A stretch of DNA of 64,000 bases, taken from an uncultured Candidatus Woesearchaeota archaeon (GTDB taxonomy: Archaea > Nanobdellota > Nanobdellia > Woesearchaeales > DSVV01). Shown here piece after piece: positions 9,579-25,037 of the stretch. The stretch is taken from NCBI GenBank assembly GCA_963717515.1, contig OY970338.1:916861-980860 (forward strand), written 5' to 3'. The notes beneath the pieces were generated by a model. The model searched no databases, was not told where the DNA came from, and was given only the letters and a program-made list of their open reading frames with translations. Made by a program: the position numbers and the translations under genes. Numbering within the stretch: the stretch's first letter is position 1; every line of letters begins with the position of its first letter.

Positions 9579-9869
9579 ATGAAAAAGATTGCATTCGGAC
9601 TTATTTTGGGATTGATGGTGATGTCCATCGGAGCACTCGCACTGCCTGTCCAGAAGACGGACGGCTTTGTATGTCCGGTGATAAAGACTGATGCAGTCCT
9701 GAATTCGCCAAAGGGAGCAGCAATCGGAGAAGGGCACTTCACCATAGGAGGGCCTGATGTCAATGTCCCGCTGCATGCCACCAATGGCGACGGGGCAGGC
9801 ACACCACCAGGACCCCACTCAGCCCCTGGTGACATCGGCTATACAGCAGTCTGGGCTAAGCAGGGTTGA
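9579..9869 (+). CDS. small secreted protein, unknown function
   Basis: An internal ATG at 9579 gives MKKIAFGLILGLMVMSIGALALP (signal peptide) plus a Gly/Pro-rich mature part. The track ORF 9495-9869 has an implausible N-terminus. Confidence 0.5.
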   Translation: MKKIAFGLILGLMVMSIGALALPVQKTDGFVCPVIKTDAVLNSPKGAAIGEGHFTIGGPDVNVPLHATNGDGAGTPPGPHSAPGDIGYTAVWAKQG

Positions 9870-9932
9870 TTTTTTTTATTTTTTCCAATTAAACCGAAAA
9901 TTTATTAAGGAAGGGATTCATAATGACTCAAA

Positions 9933-12360: not shown

Positions 12361-12933
12361 ATGACAGTAGAAGATACTATCAACAGCACGATAAAAGACG
12401 GCTTTCTTGAATTCAGGAAACAGTATGTCGCATTGATTATAGGGACTATTGTCGCAGTCCTCATGATGCTCCTCATAATAACCATCCCGCCGATGATATT
12501 CGGGATCTTCTTCATGGGCATGCAGGTGATGAAGGGCAAGAGGGTGAAGATAACCGACGTGTTCAAGGGGTTTGATTATTTCTTCCTCAGCTGGGGTATC
12601 ATCATCCTTGCTGCGATTGCGATATGCATCGGGCTTGTCCTGCTGGTGATACCGGGGATCCTGCTCATGATATTGTTGCAGTACACAATAGCAATTGCCC
12701 TGCTAGAGAACAAGGGAGTCATCGCATCCCTCAAAAGGAGCTATGAGATTGGGAAGAGGAATTTCACATTCTCGATAGTGTTCTTCATATTCATGGCTGT
12801 GATAAACACAGTGGCCGGCTATACATACGTCGGGCTGCTTGCTGCTATCCCTTTCACGTCCCTATGCACCATAGCTGCAGCAGGGAAGCTCTCAGAAAAA
12901 GAGAAATCAATAAAGAAAGAAACAAATGCCTAA
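12361..12933 (+). CDS. integral membrane protein, unknown family
   Basis: Several TM helices. GGGTGA lies upstream of the ATG at 12361. Confidence 0.6.
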   Translation: MTVEDTINSTIKDGFLEFRKQYVALIIGTIVAVLMMLLIITIPPMIFGIFFMGMQVMKGKRVKITDVFKGFDYFFLSWGIIILAAIAICIGLVLLVIPGILLMILLQYTIAIALLENKGVIASLKRSYEIGKRNFTFSIVFFIFMAVINTVAGYTYVGLLAAIPFTSLCTIAAAGKLSEKEKSIKKETNA

Positions 12934-12940
12934 GACAGGC

Positions 12941-13135
12941 TTATGCATCAAGCGAGACATTGGTCGCTTTCGGGCCCCTGTCGCCTTCGGTGACATCGAA
13001 TGTGACGGGGTCGTTTTCCCTTATTGACACGCCTTCATTCAGGCCGGAAATGTGCACAAAGTACTCTTTTCCGTCGTCTGCAGCAATAAAGCCAAAGCCC
13101 TTGCCCTCGTTAAAAAACTTCACTGTACCTTTCAT
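12941..13135 (-). CDS. csp: cold-shock domain protein (CspA family)
   Basis: MKGTVKFFNEGKGFGFIAADDGKEYFVHISGL carries the RNP1 (KGFGFI) and RNP2 (VFVH-like) motifs. Confidence 0.9.
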   Translation of the reverse strand: MKGTVKFFNEGKGFGFIAADDGKEYFVHISGLNEGVSIRENDPVTFDVTEGDRGPKATNVSLDA

Positions 13136-13356
13136 TTTGTTTTACCTCATAGCTTTTTAATCAGAATTAATAATCAATAGCAGAAAATTGTTGATTTTCT
13201 TTTTGAATGATTAATCTGTTCTGATATGCTGCCGAGAATCATTCTCAGTATTTAAATTCTTTCATTTTGAGCAGACATTATGGCCCATAATGGGAAAATA
13301 ACCCCTTATCCCTGCCTGGGAAACATTTTAATATTTCCGCCTTTCCCCTCCCATAT

Positions 13357-13656
13357 ATGAGGAAACTTGCAGCTGTTGTGATAATACTGTCAGCTTATTA
13401 TGTTTTCCAGCCAGGACAATTGAAAATATCTGACACGGGAACTGCCTATAAGTCCTCGCCGGTTCAGGTTAACAGCTGCCAGAATGCGTATGATGAATTC
13501 AGCAAGGGAATAGGTTCTGAGCTGGATTCAAGACTGGACATCGCTCTTCTGCATTACAGAAAAGCCCATGAATTATGCCCGGACTACCAGATGTTTACTG
13601 ATACCTACAACAGGCTTGAAAAAAGACTGGAGAACCGGATCTGGTTCAAGACCTGA
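13357..13656 (+). CDS. small secreted or anchored hypothetical protein
   Basis: 99-aa ORF with an N-terminal hydrophobic segment. Confidence 0.45.
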   Translation: MRKLAAVVIILSAYYVFQPGQLKISDTGTAYKSSPVQVNSCQNAYDEFSKGIGSELDSRLDIALLHYRKAHELCPDYQMFTDTYNRLEKRLENRIWFKT

Positions 13657-13692
13657 AATATCCGGGATCCATGTATGATGAGGTGATTTGGA

Positions 13693-13944
13693 ATGGAAAA
13701 ACTGAGCATAAAGGCTGCGGGTGTATCCATAGGTGGGACATGGTCGCTCTGCATGCTTCTCGCCGGGCTGTCCACAGCATACCTGGGTTGGGGGAACAGC
13801 ATCGTCGGGCTCATGTCATCATTGTACATCGGCTACAGCCCTACACTTGGAGGAAGCCTGATAGGGGCTGTCTGGTGATTCTTTGATGGTGCCCTCGGCG
13901 GTCTGTTGATTGCACTGATATATAATGCTGTGATAGGGAAATGA
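13693..13944 (+). CDS. two-helix small membrane protein interrupted by an in-frame TGA at 13876-13878
   Basis: The frame reads ...YSPTLGGSLIGAVW*FFDGALGGLLIALIYNAVIGK*. The second hydrophobic helix continues across the TGA. The extended stop overlaps the ATG of the downstream methyltransferase (ATGA at 13941-13944). Confidence 0.55.
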
Positions 13945-14498
13945 AAATGCCGCATGACAATGACAGGGTTTTCGACATACGGAGAGCTGGTAAGCTTGAA
14001 GGCAATTTCAGGAAGATAGTCCATAACCCAAAAAGGCTTCTTGGCAGTTACATAAAGCAAGGCATGACTGTCCTTGATTTCGGATGCGGTCCGGGGTTCT
14101 TCACAATCCCGATGGCAGAGATGGCCGGGGATTCAGGGAAGGTCATCGCAGCCGACCTCCAGCAGGGGATGCTGGACAGGCTAAGGGAGAAGATTGCGGG
14201 GAAAAAAATCGGGAAGAGGATCATCCTGCACAAGGTGCAGGAGGACAGCATAAATATCAGGGAGAAGTTCGACTTTGCCCTGGCATTCTACGTAGTGCAC
14301 GAGGTCCCGAGCCAGGAGAGGTTCTTCGAGGAGATGAAATCATTGCTGAAACCGGGCGGGAAGATGCTTGTCGTCGAGCCGAAATTCAAGGTCTCGAAAA
14401 AAGGATTTGATAAGACATTATCGATTGCAAAAAAAGCCGGCTACAGCCTGAAAAAAAGGCCCTCGGTACTATTGAGCAGAGCAGCAGTCCTGTGCTGA
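13941..14498 (+). CDS. class I SAM-dependent methyltransferase
   Basis: Motif I VLDFGCGPGFFT, acidic post-I residue (AADL), and LKPGGKMLVVE. Confidence 0.85.
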   Translation: MKMPHDNDRVFDIRRAGKLEGNFRKIVHNPKRLLGSYIKQGMTVLDFGCGPGFFTIPMAEMAGDSGKVIAADLQQGMLDRLREKIAGKKIGKRIILHKVQEDSINIREKFDFALAFYVVHEVPSQERFFEEMKSLLKPGGKMLVVEPKFKVSKKGFDKTLSIAKKAGYSLKKRPSVLLSRAAVLC

Positions 14499-15071
14499 CC
14501 TCATATATTTCATAAGTCCCTGATTCTCCAAATCTCTGTCAAAATTTTGCTGGGACCTGACTGCCATATCAGAAAGCAGCCATTCTGTCCTGATAACCTC
14601 GGAAAGGTCTGTCCCCATCTTGAAGCCAAACCTTGATATGTAATCAAGCCTGTACATTGAATACGTGCCGTTATCTCCAAGGATCTGCTCCATTACAATC
14701 ATGCACTTCGGCGCGTATCTGCCCTCCGCAAGCTTTAAGGAGCTATAAAGATTTATGCGCATAAATTCATAGAATATGTGAAAATCTGTAGGGGCTTTTT
14801 CGCCGGTCTCTACATATATATGCCCTCTTTTGCCATGTTTGTTAAAGGGATGCATGAATCCAAGACCATGGGGCTGCAGGATATCATAGGTCCCGATGGA
14901 TTGAACAGCATTGCCATCCAGGACACCCAGAGCAACCGTGATTTGGTTCTTTTTCAAATGTATAGTTTCCCTATATCCAGCAATTGCCAGCATTTCCTCT
15001 GAACAGTCCAATGATTTGTTCAGCCCCTTTGCAAACCTTTCCATGTCAAACAGCTGCAATTCGATGCCCAT
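14469..15071 (-). CDS. hypothetical protein, 200 aa
   Basis: Uninterrupted ORF with no recognisable motif. It is convergent with, and slightly overlaps, the methyltransferase 3' end. Confidence 0.5.
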   Translation of the reverse strand: MGIELQLFDMERFAKGLNKSLDCSEEMLAIAGYRETIHLKKNQITVALGVLDGNAVQSIGTYDILQPHGLGFMHPFNKHGKRGHIYVETGEKAPTDFHIFYEFMRINLYSSLKLAEGRYAPKCMIVMEQILGDNGTYSMYRLDYISRFGFKMGTDLSEVIRTEWLLSDMAVRSQQNFDRDLENQGLMKYMRSAQDCCSAQ

Positions 15072-15216
15072 TTTACCAGGTCATATTCAAAGTTTATAAA
15101 AAATTTTCTTATCTCTTCATCTGCAAATGGTAAAAATTCTGCCTGCATATACAGATGATACTAAATCAGGCAAAACAGCAAAATTTATAATTTCATGACC
15201 AATACCTTTTTTCATA

Positions 15217-16266
15217 ATGAGAAAGCTGATGATCCTGATTATGAGCATTCTTGCAATCTCTTCTGTTTTTGCCCTTTCGAACCCTATTACAAACAATGGC
15301 AAGACGTATTACAAGGTAAATTCTGCAGACCCGACTGAAGACACAGGGGCAGAGGTCTGCGCACAGGCAGGCATGAGCTGTGCGGGGTACACAGAGCCGA
15401 CAAGTGCTGTATGCAAGTTGTTCCACCCAAACGCTGCAGAGACTTCAGGAGGATCAGGAGACCTTGCAGGAGTGTACTGCGACGGGGCTCCGCAGTCAGG
15501 TGAATGCTCTCTTCTAACTGACTCATGCCTCACATGCCCGGCATGCACAAACACTGTCGACTGCAACACACCCATAGGAGGGCTCTACAGGGAGATGTAT
15601 GTCGAATGTGCTGCAGGCAGCTGCAAGCTCAGCATATCTGCTGCTGACCTCAATGATCTCCTCAACCAGGTGCAGGGGCTTAATGCACAGCTCCAGGCAT
15701 GCCCCCAGACCCTGCCGACAGGGACAGGGCTCGTGTTTGCAGACGGTAACACTGTCGTCGACATCGTAACCAACAGTGGAACGACAGAGACTCTTGCAGT
15801 GACTATCATGAATGGGCAGGTGACCGGAATTGCACGAGGAACGACCTCCACCTGCAAGCAGACGATAACAGTCGCTGAAAATGACGTAAACACCATACTG
15901 AAAAGCTCCAGCCCTGTACAAGCAATAGCATATATGGTAGGACAGAAGACGATAAAGGTCAGCGGCTGCACATTCATTAGCTCTATAAGGCTTGCTTTCA
16001 CCAATCCGATAACAGCGTTCATCGCAAGAAGAAAGGCCCCAACCCCTCCGCCTCCGAAACCCCAGCCTGACTGCGGCCAGGTAGGAGAGCAGTGCAACAA
16101 CAGGGCATGCTGGACAGGGATATGCGGCGCACCAAGAGAGAACATCAACGGCCAGTGGGGGTATTTCAATTACAGATGCATCGACCAGTCGGAATTCAAT
16201 GCAGATTGCGTGGGCCGCGGAAATGCCCCGCCGGCATGGAGCTGCTTAACAGGCCCCTGCAGATAG
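15217..16266 (+). CDS. secreted cysteine-rich protein
   Basis: Signal peptide MRKLMILIMSILAISSVFA. Cys-rich N- and C-terminal modules flank a Thr/Val-rich middle region, followed by a PTPPPPKPQP linker. Confidence 0.6.
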   Translation: MRKLMILIMSILAISSVFALSNPITNNGKTYYKVNSADPTEDTGAEVCAQAGMSCAGYTEPTSAVCKLFHPNAAETSGGSGDLAGVYCDGAPQSGECSLLTDSCLTCPACTNTVDCNTPIGGLYREMYVECAAGSCKLSISAADLNDLLNQVQGLNAQLQACPQTLPTGTGLVFADGNTVVDIVTNSGTTETLAVTIMNGQVTGIARGTTSTCKQTITVAENDVNTILKSSSPVQAIAYMVGQKTIKVSGCTFISSIRLAFTNPITAFIARRKAPTPPPPKPQPDCGQVGEQCNNRACWTGICGAPRENINGQWGYFNYRCIDQSEFNADCVGRGNAPPAWSCLTGPCR

Positions 16267-16351
16267 AGCATTATTTTTTTCTTTCCTAATCAATTATAAT
16301 CAATCATCAACACAATAAAATATTTAAACGATGAATGATTGCTCCTTTTCC

Positions 16352-16846
16352 ATGGATTACAAAAACATCTTCTCATCTGATTTAGAATGGAACTACAGGA
16401 CGACCGGGCTGTTCATAATCCTCATGGCCCTGCCGAACCTGCTAGGGATGATAAACATAAGCACTGCATCCGGGTTCAAGCTCCACCTGTTCCAGATAGC
16501 TATATTCTTTGCAGCCATGATATACGGGCCGGCAGGCGGGGCGTTGTCAGGGTTCTTCGGCTCAGTCTATTCAGCATTCATCATGCACAACCCTTACATA
16601 ATTATAGGCAATGTCATCCTCGGTCTCTTTGCAGGGCTCTTCGCCAGGAAGCTGAACATCATAATCGCTGTGATGCTTGCATATCTGATACAGCTGCCAT
16701 GGCTTGTGCTTTCAGACCACTATCTAGCAGGCCTGCCAGGGAGCTTCATACTGCCGCTGGTGATTGCCCTTGCAGTATCAAACCTTCTCTGGGCAACGCT
16801 TGTGCATCTCGCCAACAAACCTTTAAGGGATCTGATAAAATGCTGA
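16352..16846 (+). CDS. multi-TM membrane protein (ECF-transporter S-component-like)
   Basis: Five to six TM helices with Gly-rich helix faces. A TATA-like AAATATTTAAA lies about 27 nt upstream of the ATG at 16352 (leaderless geometry). Confidence 0.55.
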   Translation: MDYKNIFSSDLEWNYRTTGLFIILMALPNLLGMINISTASGFKLHLFQIAIFFAAMIYGPAGGALSGFFGSVYSAFIMHNPYIIIGNVILGLFAGLFARKLNIIIAVMLAYLIQLPWLVLSDHYLAGLPGSFILPLVIALAVSNLLWATLVHLANKPLRDLIKC

Positions 16847-17241
16847 AGCCTGATTTTTCCAGATATTCCCTTGCGCTATTCAGCGAGGGGCAGGTGGTCT
16901 TCTCATCTGACAAATCAGGTATCAGGCCGCTTGTCGACTGCATAAGGGAATGCAAGGACAAGTTCGGAGGCTGCCTTCTCCATGACAAGGTCACCGGCCT
17001 TGCAGCAGCAAAGCTCATCGTGTTCTCAGGGATGATATCAAATGTCATGACAGGGCTTATCTCAGCCCCGGCATTGGAACTCCTCAAGGAAGAGGGTGTA
17101 AAGGTTTTGGCTGAAAAGAAAGTCGATATGATAATGAACAGGGAGGGGACCGGCAGGTGCCCGATGGAAGAGAGGGCAGAGATAACCCTCGACAACGAAA
17201 GCTTCTTCTTTGAGCTCAACAATGTCCTCATGTATTCATGA
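16840..17241 (+). CDS. DUF1893 (TM1506-like) protein
   Basis: MLKPDFSRYSLALFSEGQVVFSSDKSGIRPL..LHDKVTGLAAAKLIV..GRCPMEE matches the DUF1893 pattern. The ATG overlaps the upstream stop. The track ORF 16387-17241 merges an out-of-frame N-terminal extension. Confidence 0.7.
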   Translation: MLKPDFSRYSLALFSEGQVVFSSDKSGIRPLVDCIRECKDKFGGCLLHDKVTGLAAAKLIVFSGMISNVMTGLISAPALELLKEEGVKVLAEKKVDMIMNREGTGRCPMEERAEITLDNESFFFELNNVLMYS

Positions 17242-17274
17242 AGATCAGATATTCCAGGTTGAGATATCCATTTC

Positions 17275-17580
17275 TTATCTCTTCTCTTCCAGCATGTCGA
17301 AGAAGATGGCCATGAATCTCTTTGTTGCGATGCCAAGCTCTTTTTTCCCTTCAGATGTTATCCGGTATTTTTTCTCCTTTCCAGAATCCTTGATCTCTTC
17401 AATGAGCCCGAATTCACCGAGGGTCTTGAGCACAGGATAGATTGTCCCAGGGCTCGGCCTTGAGCCTTTCCTTTTCTCAATCTCTGCAGCAATATCGCTT
17501 CCTGACATGTTGTTCTTGCTTATGAGCTTAAGGACTATGAAGCGCAGGTAACCCCTCATATCGCAGCATCCGGACCCCAT
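17275..17580 (-). CDS. PadR-family transcriptional regulator
   Basis: RGYLRFIVLKLISKNNMSGSDIAAEIEKRKGSRPSPGTIYPVLKTLGEFGLI is the canonical PadR wHTH. Confidence 0.85.
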   Translation of the reverse strand: MGSGCCDMRGYLRFIVLKLISKNNMSGSDIAAEIEKRKGSRPSPGTIYPVLKTLGEFGLIEEIKDSGKEKKYRITSEGKKELGIATKRFMAIFFDMLEEKR

Positions 17581-17659
17581 TTTATCATGGTATATCACCT
17601 GCATATATATTAGTTGCGTATACAAATATCATCATGGCATGCGGTATTAAAGAGCAGTT

Positions 17660-17717
17660 ATATCGGATAAACGATATATTTATATATGCAAGATGCATAC
17701 CTATCGTATAACCGATA
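17660..17717. promoter_or_regulatory. two related palindromes (ATATCG-N6-CGATAT and TATCG-N6-CGATA) flanking a TATA-like element; candidate PadR operators
   Basis: The palindromes lie at 17660-17677 and 17702-17717, about 41 bp centre to centre. TATATTTATATATG lies between them, in the divergent region between padR and the small ORF at 17795. Confidence 0.35.
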
Positions 17718-17794
17718 TCAAAATGAGGAGGCATCACGGATTCAAAAAAGGATTCCCTTGCGCTCCTCGTTAAAACAACACGGAGGTGGTTGTC

Positions 17795-17929
17795 ATGCAC
17801 GAATACTGTATGCCAAGGCGTTTCCTGACAAAGGAAGAGAAGATCGAGAGGCTCGAGGAATACAAGAAAGAGCTCGAGACTGAGACAAAGGCAGTAGACG
17901 AGAAGATAGAGTGGCTCAGGAAGAAATGA
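17795..17929 (+). CDS. small coiled-coil protein (DUF5320-like C-terminus), 44 aa
   Basis: Own translation gives MHEYCMPRRFLTKEEKIERLEEYKKELETETKAVDEKIEWLRKK. GGAGGTGG lies 5-6 nt upstream. It is divergent from padR. Confidence 0.5.
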   Translation: MHEYCMPRRFLTKEEKIERLEEYKKELETETKAVDEKIEWLRKK

Positions 17930-17993
17930 ATTTTTTCTTATTTTTTTTTTGTTGTTTGTGAAGTTATGATATCCAAGATTTCCGGGCGGGATT

Positions 17994-18491
17994 ATGGAAT
18001 ATGAGCAAAAGATAAGGGATGCAAGAACCATTGGGGACATATTTGATATAGTCAAAGCCTTGGTAAGAGAATTCCTGGGAAGGGACCAGGCAGGCCTCAT
18101 GGTGGGCCTGTCAGACCTGGGCTCCCACAGCAGTGGATTTATCGGGGCCTATTATTCCCCTAATGCGAACATCATAATCATCAACAAAAAGCCGCTCGAG
18201 AGGATCCTGCAGACAGACCCCGGCCTCTACAACTTCTATCTTTTCCACGTGATGCTCCATGAATACATGCATTCAATAGGGCTGTATGACGAGATGGGGA
18301 CAAGGCAGCTTGTCAACGAGATAAGCACCCATTATTTCGGCCGGAGCCATGAGATAACCCAGCTCGGGACGAATATCGAGAGATTCTTCCCAAATCTGAC
18401 TTTCCCCGGCTCAGGCTACCAGCCACCCGATGACTCGAGTGTCGAATTCATCTCCGGCATTGACAGGGGAAACACCGGCTATATCCTCTGA
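17994..18491 (+). CDS. putative zinc metallopeptidase (HExxH)
   Basis: The motif FHVMLHEYMHSIG sits in a 165-aa soluble protein. The family was not identified. Confidence 0.55.
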   Translation: MEYEQKIRDARTIGDIFDIVKALVREFLGRDQAGLMVGLSDLGSHSSGFIGAYYSPNANIIIINKKPLERILQTDPGLYNFYLFHVMLHEYMHSIGLYDEMGTRQLVNEISTHYFGRSHEITQLGTNIERFFPNLTFPGSGYQPPDDSSVEFISGIDRGNTGYIL

Positions 18492-18534
18492 AATTCAATT
18501 AACTTTATTTAGACTGCATGATTTCCTGCCCCAT

Positions 18535-19878
18535 ATGGTCACTACTGAAGAGAGAATAATACTTCAGACACTCAGGGGAAACCCTGGAAAAAGGAAAAGA
18601 TTCTGCAATGGAATCCATGCTGAGCTTGCAGGATTCCTCAAGGTAGATGTATCTGAGAAGCTTGTATCCGGACTTGAATACCTAATCGAGACGACTGACC
18701 CATACAATTTAGAGAGAAAAGGGGTGGTCATCAACTGCAAAGTAAGCAGAAAAGCCCGGAAAACAACAACCCAGGCAATGGAAGAAAGGTACAGGTTGAC
18801 GCTATTCTCAAAATCATATTACTTAAACGGATTTCCCCAGAGGAAGGGGATTGCCGAGGACCTAGACTGTGAAGCAACCATATCGTATGACCGTGCGGAT
18901 ATAAAATATTTGGTCAACGGCAGAGCCACCCAGGCCAGGCTAAAGCCGAAAGAAGGCGCATTCATATTCAGGACAAGAAGGCTCGCAGATTACAGGGACT
19001 TTTCCGGCGTCATGCTTACAGGCATGGTCTCATCGCGCAGGGTGAATTATGGCCGTAAGTGCGTAGTTATCTCGGGAGAGGACAGGGGAAGCCTGGTATT
19101 CCTGATTGAGCACAAGGGCAATATATTTAATTACAACCTCTATGGTGAGATGGTGCAGCCATGTTTCTCGAAAGAAGAGACAGCATCAAGAAAAGTGATG
19201 TTCAAGGCAGACAGGCTGTATGAAGAAGCGAAAAAGCAACATCCCAGCAAGCACCTGGAAATGGTCAAAAAGAACCTCAAGTCAAGATGGGGCAATGATT
19301 ATGAATCATTCAACAACATGGGTGTGACAGCAATACTGAGCGGGGAGGTGCATAATAATATAGGCCCAAAAGGAAATTTCAATTTCATGACAGGGACACC
19401 CAGCGGAGGCAGGAAGTCATTCTATGTCGGAAAAGAATATCACGAAGAGAGGTGCAGAGCTGAATTCAAGGGGCCGTACGTATTTTTTTATATCAATGAC
19501 TTCCTTGTAAACGGTTTCAGGTCCGCATCGGACACCTTTGAGGTAGTCACCCCGAAAACAACACATGAATATGATTATTTCAGGTTAAGGAACATCCCGG
19601 AATCATCGAACAAACCAATCGAGATTAACACACCCCTGGCAATATATGGATTCACACATAAAGGTCTCTCCAGGTATGCAGGGACAGACATAAAAAATGC
19701 GAGATGCGCACTCGCATGCCTTCATACAAAAGACTCAGGAGACCTGTTCACTCTGCTCGTCAAAGAGCACAGGATAGTCTATGAGCACGAGGTCCAGCCA
19801 TGCCATGTTAAGATGAGGGAGGAGAAATCAGAACCTTTGTCTGGGATCGGATTAAGAGTGATAGCAGCATCTCATTGA
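18535..19878 (+). CDS. hypothetical protein, about 447 aa, no recognisable family
   Basis: Long ORF. The start is taken at MVTTEERIILQ (18535), because the track start at 18430 overlaps the upstream gene. Confidence 0.55.
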   Translation: MVTTEERIILQTLRGNPGKRKRFCNGIHAELAGFLKVDVSEKLVSGLEYLIETTDPYNLERKGVVINCKVSRKARKTTTQAMEERYRLTLFSKSYYLNGFPQRKGIAEDLDCEATISYDRADIKYLVNGRATQARLKPKEGAFIFRTRRLADYRDFSGVMLTGMVSSRRVNYGRKCVVISGEDRGSLVFLIEHKGNIFNYNLYGEMVQPCFSKEETASRKVMFKADRLYEEAKKQHPSKHLEMVKKNLKSRWGNDYESFNNMGVTAILSGEVHNNIGPKGNFNFMTGTPSGGRKSFYVGKEYHEERCRAEFKGPYVFFYINDFLVNGFRSASDTFEVVTPKTTHEYDYFRLRNIPESSNKPIEINTPLAIYGFTHKGLSRYAGTDIKNARCALACLHTKDSGDLFTLLVKEHRIVYEHEVQPCHVKMREEKSEPLSGIGLRVIAASH

Positions 19879-19989
19879 CTTTCTCCAACTTGGCAACAAC
19901 TTCTGCAATGGCAATGCATGGGAAAACCACAATATGCACTGGCCATGCCCGGGCAAGCTTTATAACCTGATATCCATTCCCAGATAATC

Positions 19990-21918
19990 ATGATGTTCCA
20001 GCTGAAATCGGATTTCAAACCCAGGGGCTCGCAGCCCGAGGCCATAAAGAAGCTCGTCAGCGGCCTTTTGGCTGGCAACAGGTTCCAGACTCTTCTCGGG
20101 ATCACAGGCTCTGGAAAGACATTCACCATAGCAAATGTCATAAACCAGGTCCAGAGGCCGACGCTTGTCCTCGCCCACAACAAGACCCTTGCAGCGCAGC
20201 TCTACAATGAACTCAGGGATTTCTTCCCTGGTAACAGGGTCGAGTATTTTGTCTCGTACTATGACTACTACCAGCCGGAGTCATACATACCTCAGAAGGA
20301 CCAGTACATCGAGAAGGATACGCAGGTCAACCCGAAGATCGAGCAGATGCGCCTCTCTGCGACAGCATCGCTGATGTCAAGGAAGGATGTGATAATCGTA
20401 GCCTCTGTCTCATGCATATACAGCCTGGGAAAGCCTGAGAATTTCCGTGAGCTGGGATTCGAGCTCAAGAAAGGGCAGAAGGCAAAGAGAAACGACATCC
20501 TGCAGAAGCTCATAAATATCCAGTTCGAGAGAAACGACATGGAGCTCATGCCCGGAAGGTTCAGGGTCAAGGGCGACACCATCGACATGATTCCCGGCTA
20601 TCAGAACAACATTATACGGATCGAGCTCTTCGGCGACGAGATAGAGAAGATCCATGAGATCGAGAAGACCTCTGGAAAGGCAGTCGATTCGTTTGATTAT
20701 TTCTATGTGTATCCGGCAAGGCATTTCGTGATATCCGAGGATGAGAAGAGGAAGGCAATCGGCGAGATAAAAGCCGAGCTTGAGCTTCGGTTTGGGGAAC
20801 TTGACATGATAGAGCAGCACAGGCTAAGGCAGCGGACGCTCTACGATATCGAGATGATAGAAGAGACAGGTTTCTGCAAGGGCATAGAGAACTATTCCAG
20901 GCATTTCGACGGCAGGAAGCCAGGTGAGAAGCCCTATACCCTGCTTGATTATTTCCCTGACGACTTCATATTCATAATAGACGAGTCCCACCAGACAATA
21001 CCCCAGCTCCACGGCATGTACAACGGGGATTATTCAAGGAAAAAGACCCTTGTCGATTTCGGGTTCCGACTGCCGAGCGCCCTTGACAACAGGCCCCTGA
21101 AGTTCCATGAGACAGAGGAGTATTTCAGGAACACGATATTCGTCTCTGCGACACCAGCGGAATACGAGCTCGGAAAATCCAAGCAGGTGGTCGAGCAGAT
21201 AATCAGACCGACAGGACTTATCGACCCGGAGGTGGAGATAAGGAAGATAGAGGGACAGGTCGATGATCTCAAGAAGGAGATTAAAAAGACGATTGAAAAA
21301 GGCAACAGGGTGCTTGTGACAACGCTCACAAAGAAGCTTGCAGAAGAGCTTACAGAGTTCCTCGCTGAGGATAATTTCAGGACAAGGTACCTGCATTCTG
21401 AGATAGACACACTCGAGAGGACTGAGATAATAAGGGAGCTCAGGCTCGGGAAATTCGACGTGCTTGTAGGCATCAATCTCCTTAGAGAGGGCCTTGACAT
21501 CCCAGAGGTAGGGTTCATAGGAATACTTGATGCAGACAAGGAGGGGTTTCTGAGGGATGCAAGGAGCCTGATACAGATAATAGGCAGGGCAGCCAGGAAC
21601 ACTGACTCAAAAGTGATACTCTACGCCGACAACATGACAAAATCCATAAAAGAGGCTGTCGCAGAGACTTACAGGAGAAGGAGCCTTCAGATAGAATACA
21701 ACAGGAAGCACAATATAACGCCCAAGACCATCATCAAGCCTATCAAGGAGAAGGTAGTCGAGATAAAAGATGTCAAGTCAGTGCCAAAAAAAGAGATACC
21801 TAACATGATAATAGGTCTTGAGGCTGAGATGGCAGAGGCAGCTGACAGGCTTGACTTTGAGGAGGCGATCCAGCTCAGGGAGAGGATAAGGAAGCTCAGG
21901 GAGCGCATCTCAAAATGA
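19990..21918 (+). CDS. uvrB: excinuclease ABC subunit B
   Basis: Walker A GITGSGKT, YYDYYQPE (beta-hairpin region), DESH, helicase motifs, and a C-terminal UVR domain (LDFEEAIQLRERIRKL). Confidence 0.95.
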   Translation: MMFQLKSDFKPRGSQPEAIKKLVSGLLAGNRFQTLLGITGSGKTFTIANVINQVQRPTLVLAHNKTLAAQLYNELRDFFPGNRVEYFVSYYDYYQPESYIPQKDQYIEKDTQVNPKIEQMRLSATASLMSRKDVIIVASVSCIYSLGKPENFRELGFELKKGQKAKRNDILQKLINIQFERNDMELMPGRFRVKGDTIDMIPGYQNNIIRIELFGDEIEKIHEIEKTSGKAVDSFDYFYVYPARHFVISEDEKRKAIGEIKAELELRFGELDMIEQHRLRQRTLYDIEMIEETGFCKGIENYSRHFDGRKPGEKPYTLLDYFPDDFIFIIDESHQTIPQLHGMYNGDYSRKKTLVDFGFRLPSALDNRPLKFHETEEYFRNTIFVSATPAEYELGKSKQVVEQIIRPTGLIDPEVEIRKIEGQVDDLKKEIKKTIEKGNRVLVTTLTKKLAEELTEFLAEDNFRTRYLHSEIDTLERTEIIRELRLGKFDVLVGINLLREGLDIPEVGFIGILDADKEGFLRDARSLIQIIGRAARNTDSKVILYADNMTKSIKEAVAETYRRRSLQIEYNRKHNITPKTIIKPIKEKVVEIKDVKSVPKKEIPNMIIGLEAEMAEAADRLDFEEAIQLRERIRKLRERISK

Positions 21919-22031
21919 CTGGTCCGAATGCATATGCACCTTAGATTATGATATCTCTTCGATATCTCTTCATTCACGTATTGAATAAATTTAAATACTC
22001 AGCCCCAACCATGGTCCCGGGGGGTGATTGA

Positions 22032-22271
22032 ATGAAATCTGAAGTCGTTGAGAAACTGGCCGCTTTGATAACAGCTGCTTTCGGCCTTGTCGCAGCGCTT
22101 GCATGGAACAGTGCCATCACTGCAATGTTTGTGGGCCCGTGCGGAACAGAGGGTGCCGGAGTCCTATGCAGCCTTTCAGCAGGAGGCCCATGGGTCTATG
22201 CAGTCTTTGTCACCATCATTGCTGTGATTGCGACTATCTGGATAGGTAAAGTCGCTGAGAAAAAGAAGTGA
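22032..22271 (+). CDS. DUF5654-like small membrane protein
   Basis: Contains LITAAFGLVAALAWNSAITAMF and a C-terminal TM. GGGGGTGA lies upstream. Confidence 0.65.
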   Translation: MKSEVVEKLAALITAAFGLVAALAWNSAITAMFVGPCGTEGAGVLCSLSAGGPWVYAVFVTIIAVIATIWIGKVAEKKK

Positions 22272-22342
22272 TTCTTAATTTTTTCTTTTTTTTGTACCTC
22301 TAATATTGACCGAGACTTTCAAAATTTTGCATATTCAGATTT

Positions 22343-23413
22343 ATGAATAATTTTAAATATGAATTAAAAAATCAATTCCTGATGGGCCTGACGAAAAAGC
22401 AGTACAACCAGATAAGGGATGAGCTTGACACATGCACAAGGCCGCTCTTCTATTTCCATGACGATCCTGACGGGCTATGCTCGTTTCTACAGTTCTATAA
22501 TTACATACATGAAGGCTACGGGGTCGTTGTCAAGAGCAGGCCGCTAATCGACATGAAGTTCCTTGGGAAGGTCGAGACCTACAATCCTGACAAGATATTC
22601 GTCCTTGACATCGCCGGCATTGAGCAGGAATTCGTGGATTCTGCAAAAAGGCCCCTTATCTGGGTCGACCATCATCCGCGCCAGGAGATCGAAAGGGTCA
22701 GGTACTTCAACCCCATGCCAAAGGGCAATCCCTGCGTGTCATACCTAACCTACAAGACCGTAAAAGAGAGCCTCTGGATTGCAATGGTAGGATGCATCAG
22801 CGACATGTACTGGCCAAAGGACCTGCTGGGTGAATTCAGGAAAAGATATCCAGGCCTTCTGCCGAAGAAAATCAAGGATGTGCGCACCGCCCTGTATGAA
22901 AGCGACGCAGGGAAGCTTGCCAGGATATTCTCTGCAGTGCTGAAAGGTACGAGCAGCGATGCGATGAAATATGTAAAGGCTCTTACAAGGGTGAAGGAGC
23001 CTGGGGAGATACTGGACCAGGAGGATGCAAGGGGCAAATTCATATTCAAGAGATACAAGGAGATAGACAGGGAATACCAGAAGCTCCTCAGGGCCGCTAA
23101 AAAGAAGGTGACTGATGACAGCATAGCACTTTTCATATACAGGGAAAGCAAGTTCGCTTTTTCCGGCGACATTGCAAATGAGATGCTCTACAGGTTCCCG
23201 GAAAAGCTCGTCATCATAGGAAGGGAGAAGAGCGGCGAGGTCAAGTGCAGCCTGCGCTCAAACGACCTGGTGCTTCCGCCGATGATAGGGAAGGCCCTTG
23301 TGGGATGCGAGGGATACGGTGGAGGACATGACCATGCGTGCGGGGCCTGCATAAAGCAGGAGGATTTCGAGAGGTTCATGGAGAATCTCAGGGGTCAACT
23401 GGATACAAATTGA
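22343..23413 (+). CDS. DHH/DHHA1-family phosphoesterase (NrnA/RecJ-like)
   Basis: Motifs HDDPDGLCS, VLDIAG, VDHH, and GGGHDHACGA (DHHA1). Confidence 0.75.
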   Translation: MNNFKYELKNQFLMGLTKKQYNQIRDELDTCTRPLFYFHDDPDGLCSFLQFYNYIHEGYGVVVKSRPLIDMKFLGKVETYNPDKIFVLDIAGIEQEFVDSAKRPLIWVDHHPRQEIERVRYFNPMPKGNPCVSYLTYKTVKESLWIAMVGCISDMYWPKDLLGEFRKRYPGLLPKKIKDVRTALYESDAGKLARIFSAVLKGTSSDAMKYVKALTRVKEPGEILDQEDARGKFIFKRYKEIDREYQKLLRAAKKKVTDDSIALFIYRESKFAFSGDIANEMLYRFPEKLVIIGREKSGEVKCSLRSNDLVLPPMIGKALVGCEGYGGGHDHACGACIKQEDFERFMENLRGQLDTN

Positions 23414-24558
23414 TAAAGGATTTCCCTGACTTTGTACGACGCAGCCATTTTTTTCAGGTTTTTTTCTATAATCTGTTTGGCTCTCTGCTTTGCCCCCTTA
23501 TATTTGTATTTCTCTCCGATCTCTTTAAAAGTATGCTCCCTGTCATAACCAATGGCGTATTTCATCTTAATCATGTCTCTTGCCTTTCTATCCAGCCTAT
23601 CCAATTCAGCTGTCAACTTTTCTGATAGGTCATTTCCGCAGACAGCAGAAAAAGGCGAGGGCATCTTATCATCTGCAATAATATCAATTCTTGGAACATC
23701 ATAATTTTTATGTGTTTTCTCATCAAGTGAAAAGGTTTGATTCATGAGTATCATATATTCCGACACTTTTTTTTTTGGCAGATTGGACAAATCCGCAAGC
23801 TCTCTAATTGTTGCATCCTCTCCTGTCCGGCGATAGATCTCATCCTTATACCGCATGATGGCAAAATATTTTTTTGCTGCATCAAGGCCCAACTTATCAT
23901 TACTTCCTTTGATAATGGCCATCATCATGTAGCATTTTATCCAATAGGCTGCGTATGTGCTGAATCTGTTGGTTTTTCTATTTTCGGCATTTTCCGCTGC
24001 TGAAAACAGGCCCCAATTGCCTTCATTCACAAGATCTGAAAACTCAATATTTGGGTTCTCTGACATATGATAATTTAGATTACTATAGCTCTTTGCGATG
24101 ATTTTCACAAGATCCTGCTGCGAGTCCACCAGGATATTGACATCCATCATTTTTTTGTCGACATAACTCTTCAGGGATTGTGCAGTGCCATTGAATGATT
24201 TTTTTGCATTCATCTCATTGACAATGGAATGCCCATATTCATTGTCGACAAGCAAAGGAAAAAGCCTGCTATTGACAATCTTCCTGATATAGTCCCCATA
24301 TTTCCCGTTCGATGAGCCATTATTGTTTAATTCTGAAGCAGAATTAAGATTTGGCCTGAAGATATCGATATGCGTTTTCCAATGGGGCCTGGTTCCTTCT
24401 AAATATTCCAATGGAGGATAAATAAAATCAGGAAATCTGGGAATACCCATTGCAATATTGAATATCTTCTCTTTTTCGATATTTTTATGCCTGATTATCT
24501 GCCTCTCCTGTTCCCGGCTGAGCCTTCTGTCCCCATTTTGCCTATAGTTTATCATCAT
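23395..24558 (-). CDS. sigma-70-family RNA polymerase sigma factor homolog (regions 2-4) with a unique N-terminal extension of about 150 aa
   Basis: Region 2 is DLVNEGNWGLFSAAENAENRKTNRFSTYAAYWIK (compare bacterial [17 protein letters not shown]....[12 protein letters not shown]). A region 3-like segment is TIRELADLSNLPKKKVSEYM..FSLDE. A region 4-like segment is LDRKARDMIKMKY.....TFKEIGEKY...GAKQRAKQIIEKNLKKM. Confidence 0.75.
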   Translation of the reverse strand: MMINYRQNGDRRLSREQERQIIRHKNIEKEKIFNIAMGIPRFPDFIYPPLEYLEGTRPHWKTHIDIFRPNLNSASELNNNGSSNGKYGDYIRKIVNSRLFPLLVDNEYGHSIVNEMNAKKSFNGTAQSLKSYVDKKMMDVNILVDSQQDLVKIIAKSYSNLNYHMSENPNIEFSDLVNEGNWGLFSAAENAENRKTNRFSTYAAYWIKCYMMMAIIKGSNDKLGLDAAKKYFAIMRYKDEIYRRTGEDATIRELADLSNLPKKKVSEYMILMNQTFSLDEKTHKNYDVPRIDIIADDKMPSPFSAVCGNDLSEKLTAELDRLDRKARDMIKMKYAIGYDREHTFKEIGEKYKYKGAKQRAKQIIEKNLKKMAASYKVREILYQFVSS

Positions 24559-24625
24559 TATATTTTTTCACTACTTGTGAAAGAAGAATATTTCATGATT
24601 TTATATATTTTTGCATATAGGTAAA

Positions 24626-24640
24626 CTTTATATATAAAAT
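24626..24640 (+). promoter_or_regulatory. TATA-box promoter element CTTTATATATAAAAT upstream of tRNA-Gly
   Basis: Centred about 27 nt upstream of the tRNA 5' end. An identical 15-mer lies upstream of psmB at 33316-33330. Confidence 0.45.
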
Positions 24641-24660
24641 CCAAGTCCTATCGATAATAC

Positions 24661-24799
24661 GCGTCGGTGGTCTAATGGCTACAACCTTTTATGTAATGCA
24701 ATAATCGGTTGCTGTAAATGACTGCGGCCTTCCATAATCCTACAGCAACATGCGGATTGAAGCGAGCCGCCTATCCGGGTTCAAATCCCGGCCGACGCA
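24661..24799 (+). tRNA. tRNA-Gly(UCC) with two introns (37 nt in the D-loop at 24682-24718; 30 nt at the canonical 37/38 site, 24735-24764)
   Basis: Hand-folded. Acceptor GCGTCGG/CCGACGC; D-stem GUCU/UGAC; anticodon stem GCGGC/GCCGC; loop CUUCCA[intron]A; T-arm CCGGG-TTCAAAT-CCCGG; discriminator A. The mature length adds up to 72 nt. No CCA is encoded. Confidence 0.8.
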
Positions 24800-25037
24800 T
24801 ATATTTTCTTTGATTATCCTGAATGTTTCCGGGATTTGAACACACTGCGAAAACCTTACTATTTTCTTGTGCCTCTCGTTGACTTCGTCAACTTCAAGGA
24901 ATCCCGGCCGACGCATATATTTTCTTTGATTAACCTGAATGTTTCCGGGATTTGAACACACTGCGAAAACCTTACTGTTTTCTTGTGCCTCTCGTTGACT
25001 TCGTCAACTTCAAGGAATCCCGGCCGACGCATATATT
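24784..25037 (+). repeat. tandem direct repeat, 116-bp period, 2 full units plus a 22-bp third core; each unit begins with the tRNA-Gly 3' end (AATCCCGGCCGACGCATATATT)
   Basis: The units at 24784-24899 and 24900-25015 differ at 2 positions. The third core is at 25016-25037. Each unit contains the hairpin GTTGAC-TTC-GTCAAC and an inverted copy of the T-arm (CCGGGATTTGAAC). Confidence 0.9.

Follow-up and report, generated by a model that had tools for sequence, protein, structure and literature searches.

Archaea initiate transcription with the TATA-binding protein (TBP) and transcription factor B (TFB), and sigma factors are a hallmark of bacterial transcription. Genes of the sigma-70 family have been reported in DPANN archaea, where they are 'particularly prevalent in Woesearchaeota' (fam00359; Castelle et al. 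2021, Front Microbiol, PMC8204110). The same study ruled out mis-binning, found anti-sigma factors to be lacking and assigned no function to the genes (Castelle et al. 2021, PMC8204110). The locus described here lies in a stretch of 64,000 nucleotides from an uncultured Woesearchaeota archaeon (contig OY970338.1, positions 916,861 to 980,860; hereafter the window, in whose numbering positions are given). It carries a sigma-70-family gene, whose product is called P0001, between a DHH/DHHA1 phosphoesterase gene and a tRNA-Gly(UCC) gene. There is high confidence in its identity and authenticity, that is, in an intact sigma-70-family gene of the group 1/2 type that is truly part of an archaeal genome. 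A second member of the family, P0013, is encoded at the same site in another genome (L002), and the closest relative of the window (L003) has no such gene. Sigma genes that stay open in archaeal genomes over long spans of evolution raise the question of what role a sigma can have without its polymerase. The locus provides a clean test case, with one gene, its own putative promoter region, a same-site orthologue and a natural absence. Since sigma genes of Woesearchaeota have been known since 2021, its value lies in detail and testability.

P0001 is a further case of the phenomenon reported in 2021. As in fam00359, a Woesearchaeota-type sigma-70 gene is surrounded by archaeal machinery, has no anti-sigma gene nearby, and is protected from a mis-binning explanation by its context. 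Compared by description, P0001 and P0013 differ from that family in forming a tiny, highly divergent subfamily with its own N-terminal region. What is new is this very rare, divergent two-member subfamily, its fixed position in a variable slot by tRNA-Gly together with a close relative naturally without the gene, and a residue-level picture of decaying sigma-specific functions.

Bacterial group 1/2 sigmas (RpoD/SigA and RpoS) agree with P0001 in fold and in the order of domains throughout regions 2.1 to 4.2, and P0001 keeps their FSTYA motif and finds its best profile and structure matches among them. Unlike them, P0001 has no region 1.1 and no detectable region 1.2, is altered at 25 of 61 highly conserved positions, and resides in an archaeal host that is expected to lack the bacterial core polymerase. 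It also scores far under the equivalog cut-offs, with 109.9 against 354 bits for RpoD_Cterm and 96.7 against 378.7 bits for RpoS, and assignment as an orthologue of either was rejected. The sigmas of phages and conjugative elements (PHROG 351; P0100 on a phage-like contig and P0030 on a conjugative element) are likewise short sigma-70-type proteins, carried about by mobile DNA, and the region 2.3 variant FSTYAAYWIKQ of P0100 is similar to FSTYAAYWIKC of P0001. They differ from P0001 in having a recognisable region 1.2 and in serving a bacterial polymerase, and identity is only about 30%. MzaA, of the MZA anti-phage system, also has matching sigma-70 domains (NCBIfam NF041931, E=1.8e-27; PADLOC MzaA, E=2.9e-20), but only the C-terminal sigma part of the profile is matched (positions 467–714 of 726), at 96.5 bits against a cut-off of 800. 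A defence reading of P0001 was rejected; in a scan of three nearby proteins, those of the DUF6938 gene, the DHH gene and an open reading frame (ORF) of 482 amino acids, PADLOC returned no match to MzaB–E or any other defence component.

A sigma-70-family gene in an archaeal genome

The gene and the regions of its product are as follows.

23395..24558, minus strand: sigma-70-family gene encoding P0001, 387 amino acids (ORF list, Pfam, NCBIfam RpoD_Cterm, phmmer against the PDB, AlphaFold and Foldseek)
24139..24558, minus strand: codons 1–140, N-terminal helical region known only from P0001 and P0013 (BLASTP, Smith-Waterman, hhalign, structure model)
23914..24132, minus strand: codons 143–215, sigma region 2, with core-binding 2.1/2.2 and the FSTYA motif of 2.3/2.4 (Pfam Sigma70_r2, residue table)
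23647..23886, minus strand: codons 225–304, sigma region 3 with the 3.2 linker (Pfam Sigma70_r3)
23440..23604, minus strand: codons 319–373, sigma region 4 helix-turn-helix (Pfam Sigma70_r4, alignments)

The reading frame begins with ATG, and the product consists of a lineage-specific N-terminal region followed by regions 2.1–2.4, 3 and 4. A preliminary description of the locus had recognised sigma-70 regions in it from two peptides, DLVNEGNWGLFSAAENAENRKTNRFSTYAAYWIK of region 2 (residues 175–208) and the region 4-like TFKEIGEKY...GAKQRAKQIIEKNLKKM (residues 343–371); profile searches and a fold model bear this out. Pfam Sigma70_r3 matches residues 234–304 at E=2.3e-9 and 37.7 bits (cut-off 25.3). 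Sigma70_r2 (residues 143–208, 23.3 bits) and Sigma70_r4 (residues 319–371, 20.4 bits) fall slightly under their cut-offs of 24 and 24.1, and the three matches stand in canonical order. The NCBIfam RpoD_Cterm model gives one collinear match over residues 142–379 (E=1.4e-31). The cyanobacterial RpoD model (E=1.5e-30) and the RpoS model (E=1.6e-27) perform similarly, and the scores of the FliA and RpoH models are far weaker; P0001 is therefore placed with the group 1/2 sigmas. Among PDB sequences, phmmer found 57 sigma-factor chains, the best at E=1.2e-20. The AlphaFold model is all-helical with a mean predicted local distance difference test (pLDDT) score of 85.2, and was built with a 79-sequence alignment of mostly bacterial sigmas, which favours a sigma-like fold. 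In a Foldseek search with this model the top 50 PDB matches are all primary sigma factors in holoenzyme structures, with E around 1e-10. The template modelling scores are low (0.34–0.43), which is expected for a multi-domain protein modelled free and set against polymerase-bound forms. The resemblance is not due to chance, and P0001 is a member of the sigma-70 family by both homology and fold.

The genomic context is archaeal, as the preliminary description had maintained. All informational genes checked in the window are archaeal (aCPSF1, Orc1/Cdc6, a Hel308-like helicase and RtcB), with aCPSF1 scoring 887 bits, over its equivalog cut-off. SMC, RNase HII and intron-bearing tRNA genes are present as well. 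A scan of the neighbouring DHH protein against one genome per GTDB species yielded 26 loci, of which 19 are titled Woesearchaeota, Nanoarchaeota or Nanoarchaeia, six 'uncultured Methanosarcinales' and one 'uncultured archaeon'. On these sequence relationships the host is a Woesearchaeota-type DPANN archaeon. In the DHH tree the six metagenome-assembled genomes titled 'uncultured Methanosarcinales archaeon' (L003, L007, L012, L015, L017 and L022) intersperse with the Woesearchaeota and Nanoarchaeota loci. Those titles look like a placeholder, and the public labels appear to be wrong.

The integrity of the contig, which had been a concern, is also well supported. The record of P0001 itself places the gene on a 1.84-Mb contig. 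Window positions 19055–24813 are matched at 100% identity by a Logan contig from run ERR11571143, which spans UvrB, DUF5654, DHH, the sigma gene and the tRNA, and ends within the first repeat unit beyond the tRNA. Both flanks of the sigma gene align collinearly with L003, and the locus is syntenic in L002. The independent identical assembly, the collinear flanks and this synteny exclude a chimeric contig.

Distribution and accessory status

An exhaustive phmmer search of 1.84 billion cluster representatives with P0001 gave 25,733 matches. P0013 (373 amino acids, E=2.7e-28, 29% identity) is the sole full-length match, extending over P0001 residues 8–382; all others are bacterial-type sigmas aligned only from about residue 140. 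The two proteins share homology over their N-terminal 135–140 residues (pairwise BLASTP 3e-13; Smith-Waterman score 121 against 29 ± 4.8 for shuffles, z=19). Nothing but P0001 and P0013 came out of a word-indexed search covering 5.8 billion proteins, whether queried by the single sequence or by the two-member alignment. Scanning GTDB genomes with P0001 gave no match, metagenome scans and the IMG/VR scan with the full-length alignment gave only ordinary sigmas without N-terminal coverage, and the IMG/VR scan with the N-terminal alignment alone gave none. In about 15 billion proteins searched, two family members were found. The best bacterial-type relatives are encoded in a housekeeping dnaG-rpoD operon, on a conjugative element and on a phage contig; all are near 30% identity, and no donor lineage can be named among them.

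The N-terminal region fills the place of sigma region 1.2 and the non-conserved region. Its modelled structure is confident at residues 11–40 (pLDDT 93–95) and drops to about 50 at residues 61–80. These N-terminal residues match no Pfam family, and Sigma70_r1_1 and Sigma70_r1_2 find no match in P0001 at E<=10. MAFFT sets residues 13–25 beneath the second half of region 1.2, which is suggestive only. When the N-terminal profile is compared with bacterial sigmas by hhalign, only residues 137–159 align, and these are region 2.1. Homology of the N-terminus to region 1.2, without support from Pfam or hhalign, was rejected. The preliminary description had put the unique N-terminal part at about 150 residues. 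This stands for residues 1–135, which are common only to P0001 and P0013, and fails for residues 137–159.

P0013 is encoded on a 290-kb Joint Genome Institute contig (L002) with the same gene order as the window: UvrB, a small gene, DHH/DHHA1, the sigma gene and, farther on, RNase HII and SMC. The sigma and DHH genes converge in each of the two genomes, where the sigma gene overlaps the DHH stop codon and is divergent from an intron-bearing tRNA-Gly(UCC) gene. Two features are needed for the comparison with L003.

22343..23413, plus strand: DHH/DHHA1 phosphoesterase gene, whose 3' end overlaps that of the convergent sigma gene by 19 nucleotides
23393..24660, no strand: segment present in the window and missing from the closest relative L003 (blastn)

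L003 has about 83% nucleotide identity to the window, and its DHH protein is 89% identical. Window positions 19937–23392 correspond to L003 3667–7075, and 25018–27110 to L003 7330–9434; between these matched flanks L003 holds only about 255 bp, including tRNA-Gly, and no sigma gene. The G+C fraction of the sigma gene is atypical of its surroundings: at 0.384 it is the lowest among the 46 ORFs of the window, which average 0.482 ± 0.031, and at third codon positions it is 0.430, against an average of 0.593 ± 0.067. The P0013 gene has 0.340, compared with 0.41–0.44 for UvrB, DHH and RNase HII in L002. Between the window and L002, protein identity is 29% for the sigma, 60% for DHH, 63% for RNase HII and 78% for UvrB. 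The gene looks horizontally acquired, as had been proposed, in view of its low G+C, its absence from L003, and the bacterial, phage and conjugative-element origin of its nearest relatives outside the family.

In a neighbour-joining tree of DHH proteins L002 is sister to the window and L003. Together with the absence from L003, this implies either one gain with loss in L003 or two gains. Because the private N-terminal region, the orientation and the DHH overlap are common to both copies, a single acquisition in the ancestor of the clade, followed by loss in L003, is considered likely.

Residues kept and lost

The residue comparison used 61 alignment columns that are at least 85% conserved among 77 bacterial-type sigmas. 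P0001 retains the conserved residue in 36 of these and P0013 in 30, and only 20 are kept in both. Those 20 are mostly structural, comprising glycines, core hydrophobic residues, the FSTYA motif of region 2.3, the E-x-G of the region 4 helix-turn-helix and the glutamine equivalent to Q589. Positions are numbered as in E. coli sigma-70, with the identical motif in P0064 as anchor. Selected positions are listed as bacterial residue, P0001 and P0013.

Region 2.1 NLRLV: P0001 QQDLV; P0013 NLWVV
D403: P0001 D; P0013 P
Q406: P0001 N; P0013 S
E407: P0001 E; P0013 D
N409: P0001 N; P0013 I
Y430: P0001 Y; P0013 Y
W433: P0001 Y; P0013 Y (aromatic kept in both)
W434: P0001 W; P0013 M
Q437: P0001 C; P0013 R
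T440: P0001 M, read from the sequence (column below the 85% cut-off, not in the residue table)
R441: P0001 M; P0013 N
H455: P0001 D; P0013 Y
E458: P0001 K; P0013 K
R584, E585, R586, R588, Q589: P0001 K, Q, R, K, Q; P0013 W, E, S, R, Q

The core-binding residues (NLRLV, D403, Q406, E407 and N409) are partly retained in P0001 and are not conserved across the pair. Residues for promoter melting and for recognition of the -10 and -35 elements fail the bacterial sigma pattern, with only Y430 and Q589 identical in both proteins. The recognition helix of region 4 has KQRAKQ in P0001 in place of bacterial RERIRQ. Judging by the alignment, no surface for binding the bacterial core polymerase is conserved across P0001 and P0013. 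The sigma2–4 parts of both proteins are closer to bacterial sigmas (Smith-Waterman 281–311) than to each other (230). Because each resembles bacterial sigmas more than it resembles its family partner, this fits independent divergence of P0001 and P0013 from a bacterial-like ancestor, with the two presumably drifting apart separately.

Proposed function and alternative explanations

In the explanation favoured here, the ancestor of the window, L003 and L002 lineages would have taken up the sigma gene in a single event, from a bacterium, phage or plasmid, and the gene would have come to lie in the variable slot that separates the DHH gene from tRNA-Gly(UCC). It would then have been retained as an ORF in two of the lineages and lost in the third. 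No bacterial RNA polymerase is expected in the host cells, and the residues for core binding and promoter melting have eroded differently in each lineage; the fold, FSTYA and the basic region 4 helix-turn-helix persist. Because no such polymerase is expected and key residues are eroded, P0001 has probably ceased to work as a bacterial-style initiation factor. It may act as a free-standing, sequence-specific DNA-binding regulator that contacts DNA with its region 4 helix-turn-helix and possibly with region 2.3 as well. Lacking the autoinhibitory region 1.1, it would bind DNA alone more readily; Dombroski and colleagues reportedly found in 1992 and 1993 that N-terminally truncated sigma-70 without this region can bind promoter DNA unaided. 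The pattern of retained and lost residues would likewise point to a protein that contacts DNA via regions 2.3 and 4 and does not bind the core. Among the possibilities raised in the preliminary description, exaptation as a DNA-binding regulator emerges as the most reasonable reading. The specific claim that P0001 is a sigma-derived DNA-binding regulator without a bacterial polymerase is put forward tentatively, at somewhat short of an even chance. The explanation as a whole, a single bacterial-type acquisition followed by exaptation as a regulator, is judged to have a slightly better than even chance of being correct.

Several points weigh against this explanation. The region upstream of the gene has the following character.

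24559..24660, no strand: AT-rich spacer separating the divergent sigma and tRNA-Gly genes, TATA-like boxes on each strand (putative promoter region)

TATA-like boxes in an AT-rich spacer prove little, and a scan for sigma-70-type promoters around the gene gave 9 sites against 5.1 ± 2.1 expected, an equally uninformative result in such AT-rich sequence. P0001 retains the equivalents of D403, E407, N409, Y430 and W434, so that binding to the clamp of some RNA polymerase is possible. Absence from the closest relative shows the gene to be dispensable, and its rapid divergence could equally mean weak or no function. Finally, two independent insertions into a hot spot cost the same number of events as one gain and one loss.

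The gene could also be a functionless or nearly functionless passenger, horizontally acquired and drifting to loss. The lowest G+C in the window, the absence from L003, the 29% identity where neighbours retain 60–78%, the loss of functional residues in different ways in each lineage, and the family's two members among all proteins searched are all compatible with such drift. However, both reading frames (373–387 codons) are uninterrupted over more than 370 codons at saturating divergence. Because neutral drift at this distance would fill them with stops, they appear to have been kept open. In addition, the two proteins have conserved an N-terminal region that is without counterpart in bacteria, and the model is well folded (pLDDT 85). 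A mere passenger is accordingly regarded as unlikely, if not strongly so.

A further explanation takes the gene for the cargo, or for what is left, of a virus, plasmid or integrative element with tRNA-Gly as its target, inserted independently in the window lineage and in L002. The features concerned are the tRNA and its repeats.

24661..24799, plus strand: tRNA-Gly(UCC) gene with two introns, the spliced form called tRNA-Gly(tcc) by ARAGORN
24784..25037, plus strand: three 22-nucleotide copies (the last 16 nucleotides of the tRNA plus TATATT) at 116-nucleotide spacing, forming two extra 116-nucleotide units 3' of the tRNA

The adjacent tRNA-Gly had been noted before and is real. Its unspliced genomic form was missed by ARAGORN and Rfam; the spliced form is called, and homologous tRNAs adjoin the DHH gene in L002, L003, L016 and L019. 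The position of the sigma gene beside a tRNA with repeated tRNA fragments, and its low G+C, speak for this. The 116-nucleotide units occur nowhere else in the window, and L003 has a single 22-nucleotide copy and no extra units. The interval between DHH and tRNA-Gly is 20–116 nucleotides in seven Woesearchaeota loci and 0.35–1.9 kb, with unrelated genes, in at least eight others. Similar bacterial-type sigmas are found on a phage contig and a conjugative element, and the two archaeal copies are very divergent. The geometry speaks otherwise. In both genomes the sigma gene lies outside the repeat-bounded intervals: the repeats of the window are 3' of the tRNA and the sigma gene is 5', and in L002 the stretch separating the tRNA from the sigma gene contains a fragment of the tRNA 5' end. 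The usual geometry of integration puts the sigma gene in the pre-existing flank, outside any element, and the repeats show that tRNA-Gly attracts insertions without showing that the sigma gene belongs to one. The difference from L003 is a single gene, six adjacent genes scanned contain no integrase or other mobile-element domain, and the IMG/VR scans with full-length and N-terminal alignments recovered no family member. The two copies agree in orientation and in how they overlap the stop codon of the DHH gene, and the DHH tree shows the host clade to be monophyletic. Independent arrival as mobile cargo is thus quite unlikely, and the suggestion of a mobile-element remnant, drawn earlier from the tRNA-Gly repeats, does not hold up, with the gene outside the repeats, no integrase in the six genes and no relative on viral contigs.

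P0001 might also bind the archaeal RNA polymerase, for instance at the clamp coiled-coil, and either serve as an alternative initiation factor or act as an inhibitor in competition with TFE or Spt4/5. Bacterial and archaeal polymerases both have the clamp coiled-coil, the archaeal one being the homologue of the beta-prime surface to which sigma region 2 binds. P0001 keeps the equivalents of the region 2.2 residues D403, E407 and N409, FSTYA, and the full sigma2–3.2–4 architecture with the 3.2 linker. In P0013, however, the same three residues are P, D and I, and NLRLV has become QQDLV in one protein and NLWVV in the other. As the region 2 residues differ in this way, no conserved polymerase-binding surface defines the family; the gene is also dispensable, being absent from L003. 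Binding to the archaeal polymerase is considered improbable. The stronger form of this proposal, in which P0001 would be re-tooled to dock on the archaeal clamp and direct or block initiation at a subset of promoters beside TBP and TFB, is decidedly improbable; if true, such docking would constitute a hybrid bacterial/archaeal initiation mechanism alongside TBP and TFB.

That P0001 targets a bacterial partner's or host's RNA polymerase, which the preliminary description had considered, or that the gene is a contaminating bacterial fragment or an assembly chimera, is hardly credible: the bacterial ancestry of the family and nothing else speaks for it, the N-terminus (MMINYRQNGDRRLSREQERQ...) is unlike a signal peptide, as judged by eye only, the core-binding residues are unconserved within the family, having eroded differently in P0001 and P0013, and the locus is identical in another assembly, syntenic in L002, and flanked on both sides by sequence that aligns to a Woesearchaeota-type relative.

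Other observations at the locus

The positions of the introns in tRNA-Gly vary among close relatives, and the genomic forms are missed by ARAGORN and Rfam. In the window one intron is in the D-arm region and one follows position 37, in L003 (7202–7343) one follows position 37 and one is in the T-loop, and in L002 (about 9717–9838, minus strand) there is one long intron. In each of the extra 116-nucleotide units 3' of the tRNA in the window, the T-arm recurs in inverted orientation, CCGGGATTTGAAC, a small hairpin is present, GTTGAC-TTC-GTCAAC, and the 22-nucleotide tRNA 3' end closes the unit. These units could be traces left by integration and excision, or else a miniature element. In L002 a 19-nucleotide stretch spanning the 5' end of tRNA-Gly (9820–9838) is repeated 90 nucleotides on (9910–9928), between the tRNA and the sigma gene.

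The spacer between DHH and tRNA-Gly is a hot spot of insertion across Woesearchaeota (L005, L006, L008–L011, L017 and L020). Its contents include a predicted lipoprotein (L008, L009 and L011), a gene with LAGLIDADG-like motifs (L008), membrane proteins (L006, L010 and L017) and duplicated unknown genes (L005).

Another bacterial-type system adjoins the sigma gene, with UvrB encoded at 19990–21918. In L002, UvrA, UvrB and UvrC are encoded within 12430–21122; UvrB is well conserved, at 78% identity between the two genomes. Just upstream of uvrB in the window is the 482-amino-acid ORF (18430–19878, plus strand), which has no Pfam or PADLOC match; the segment 18488–19936 that includes most of it has no counterpart in L003. 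As a partner co-varying with the sigma gene this ORF was rejected, since it is missing from L003 but has no homologue beside UvrB in L002. Farther upstream, an ORF of 171 amino acids (17585–18100, minus strand) without a Pfam match has the second-lowest G+C in the window (0.403) and the lowest G+C at third codon positions (0.401), and may have been recently acquired as well.

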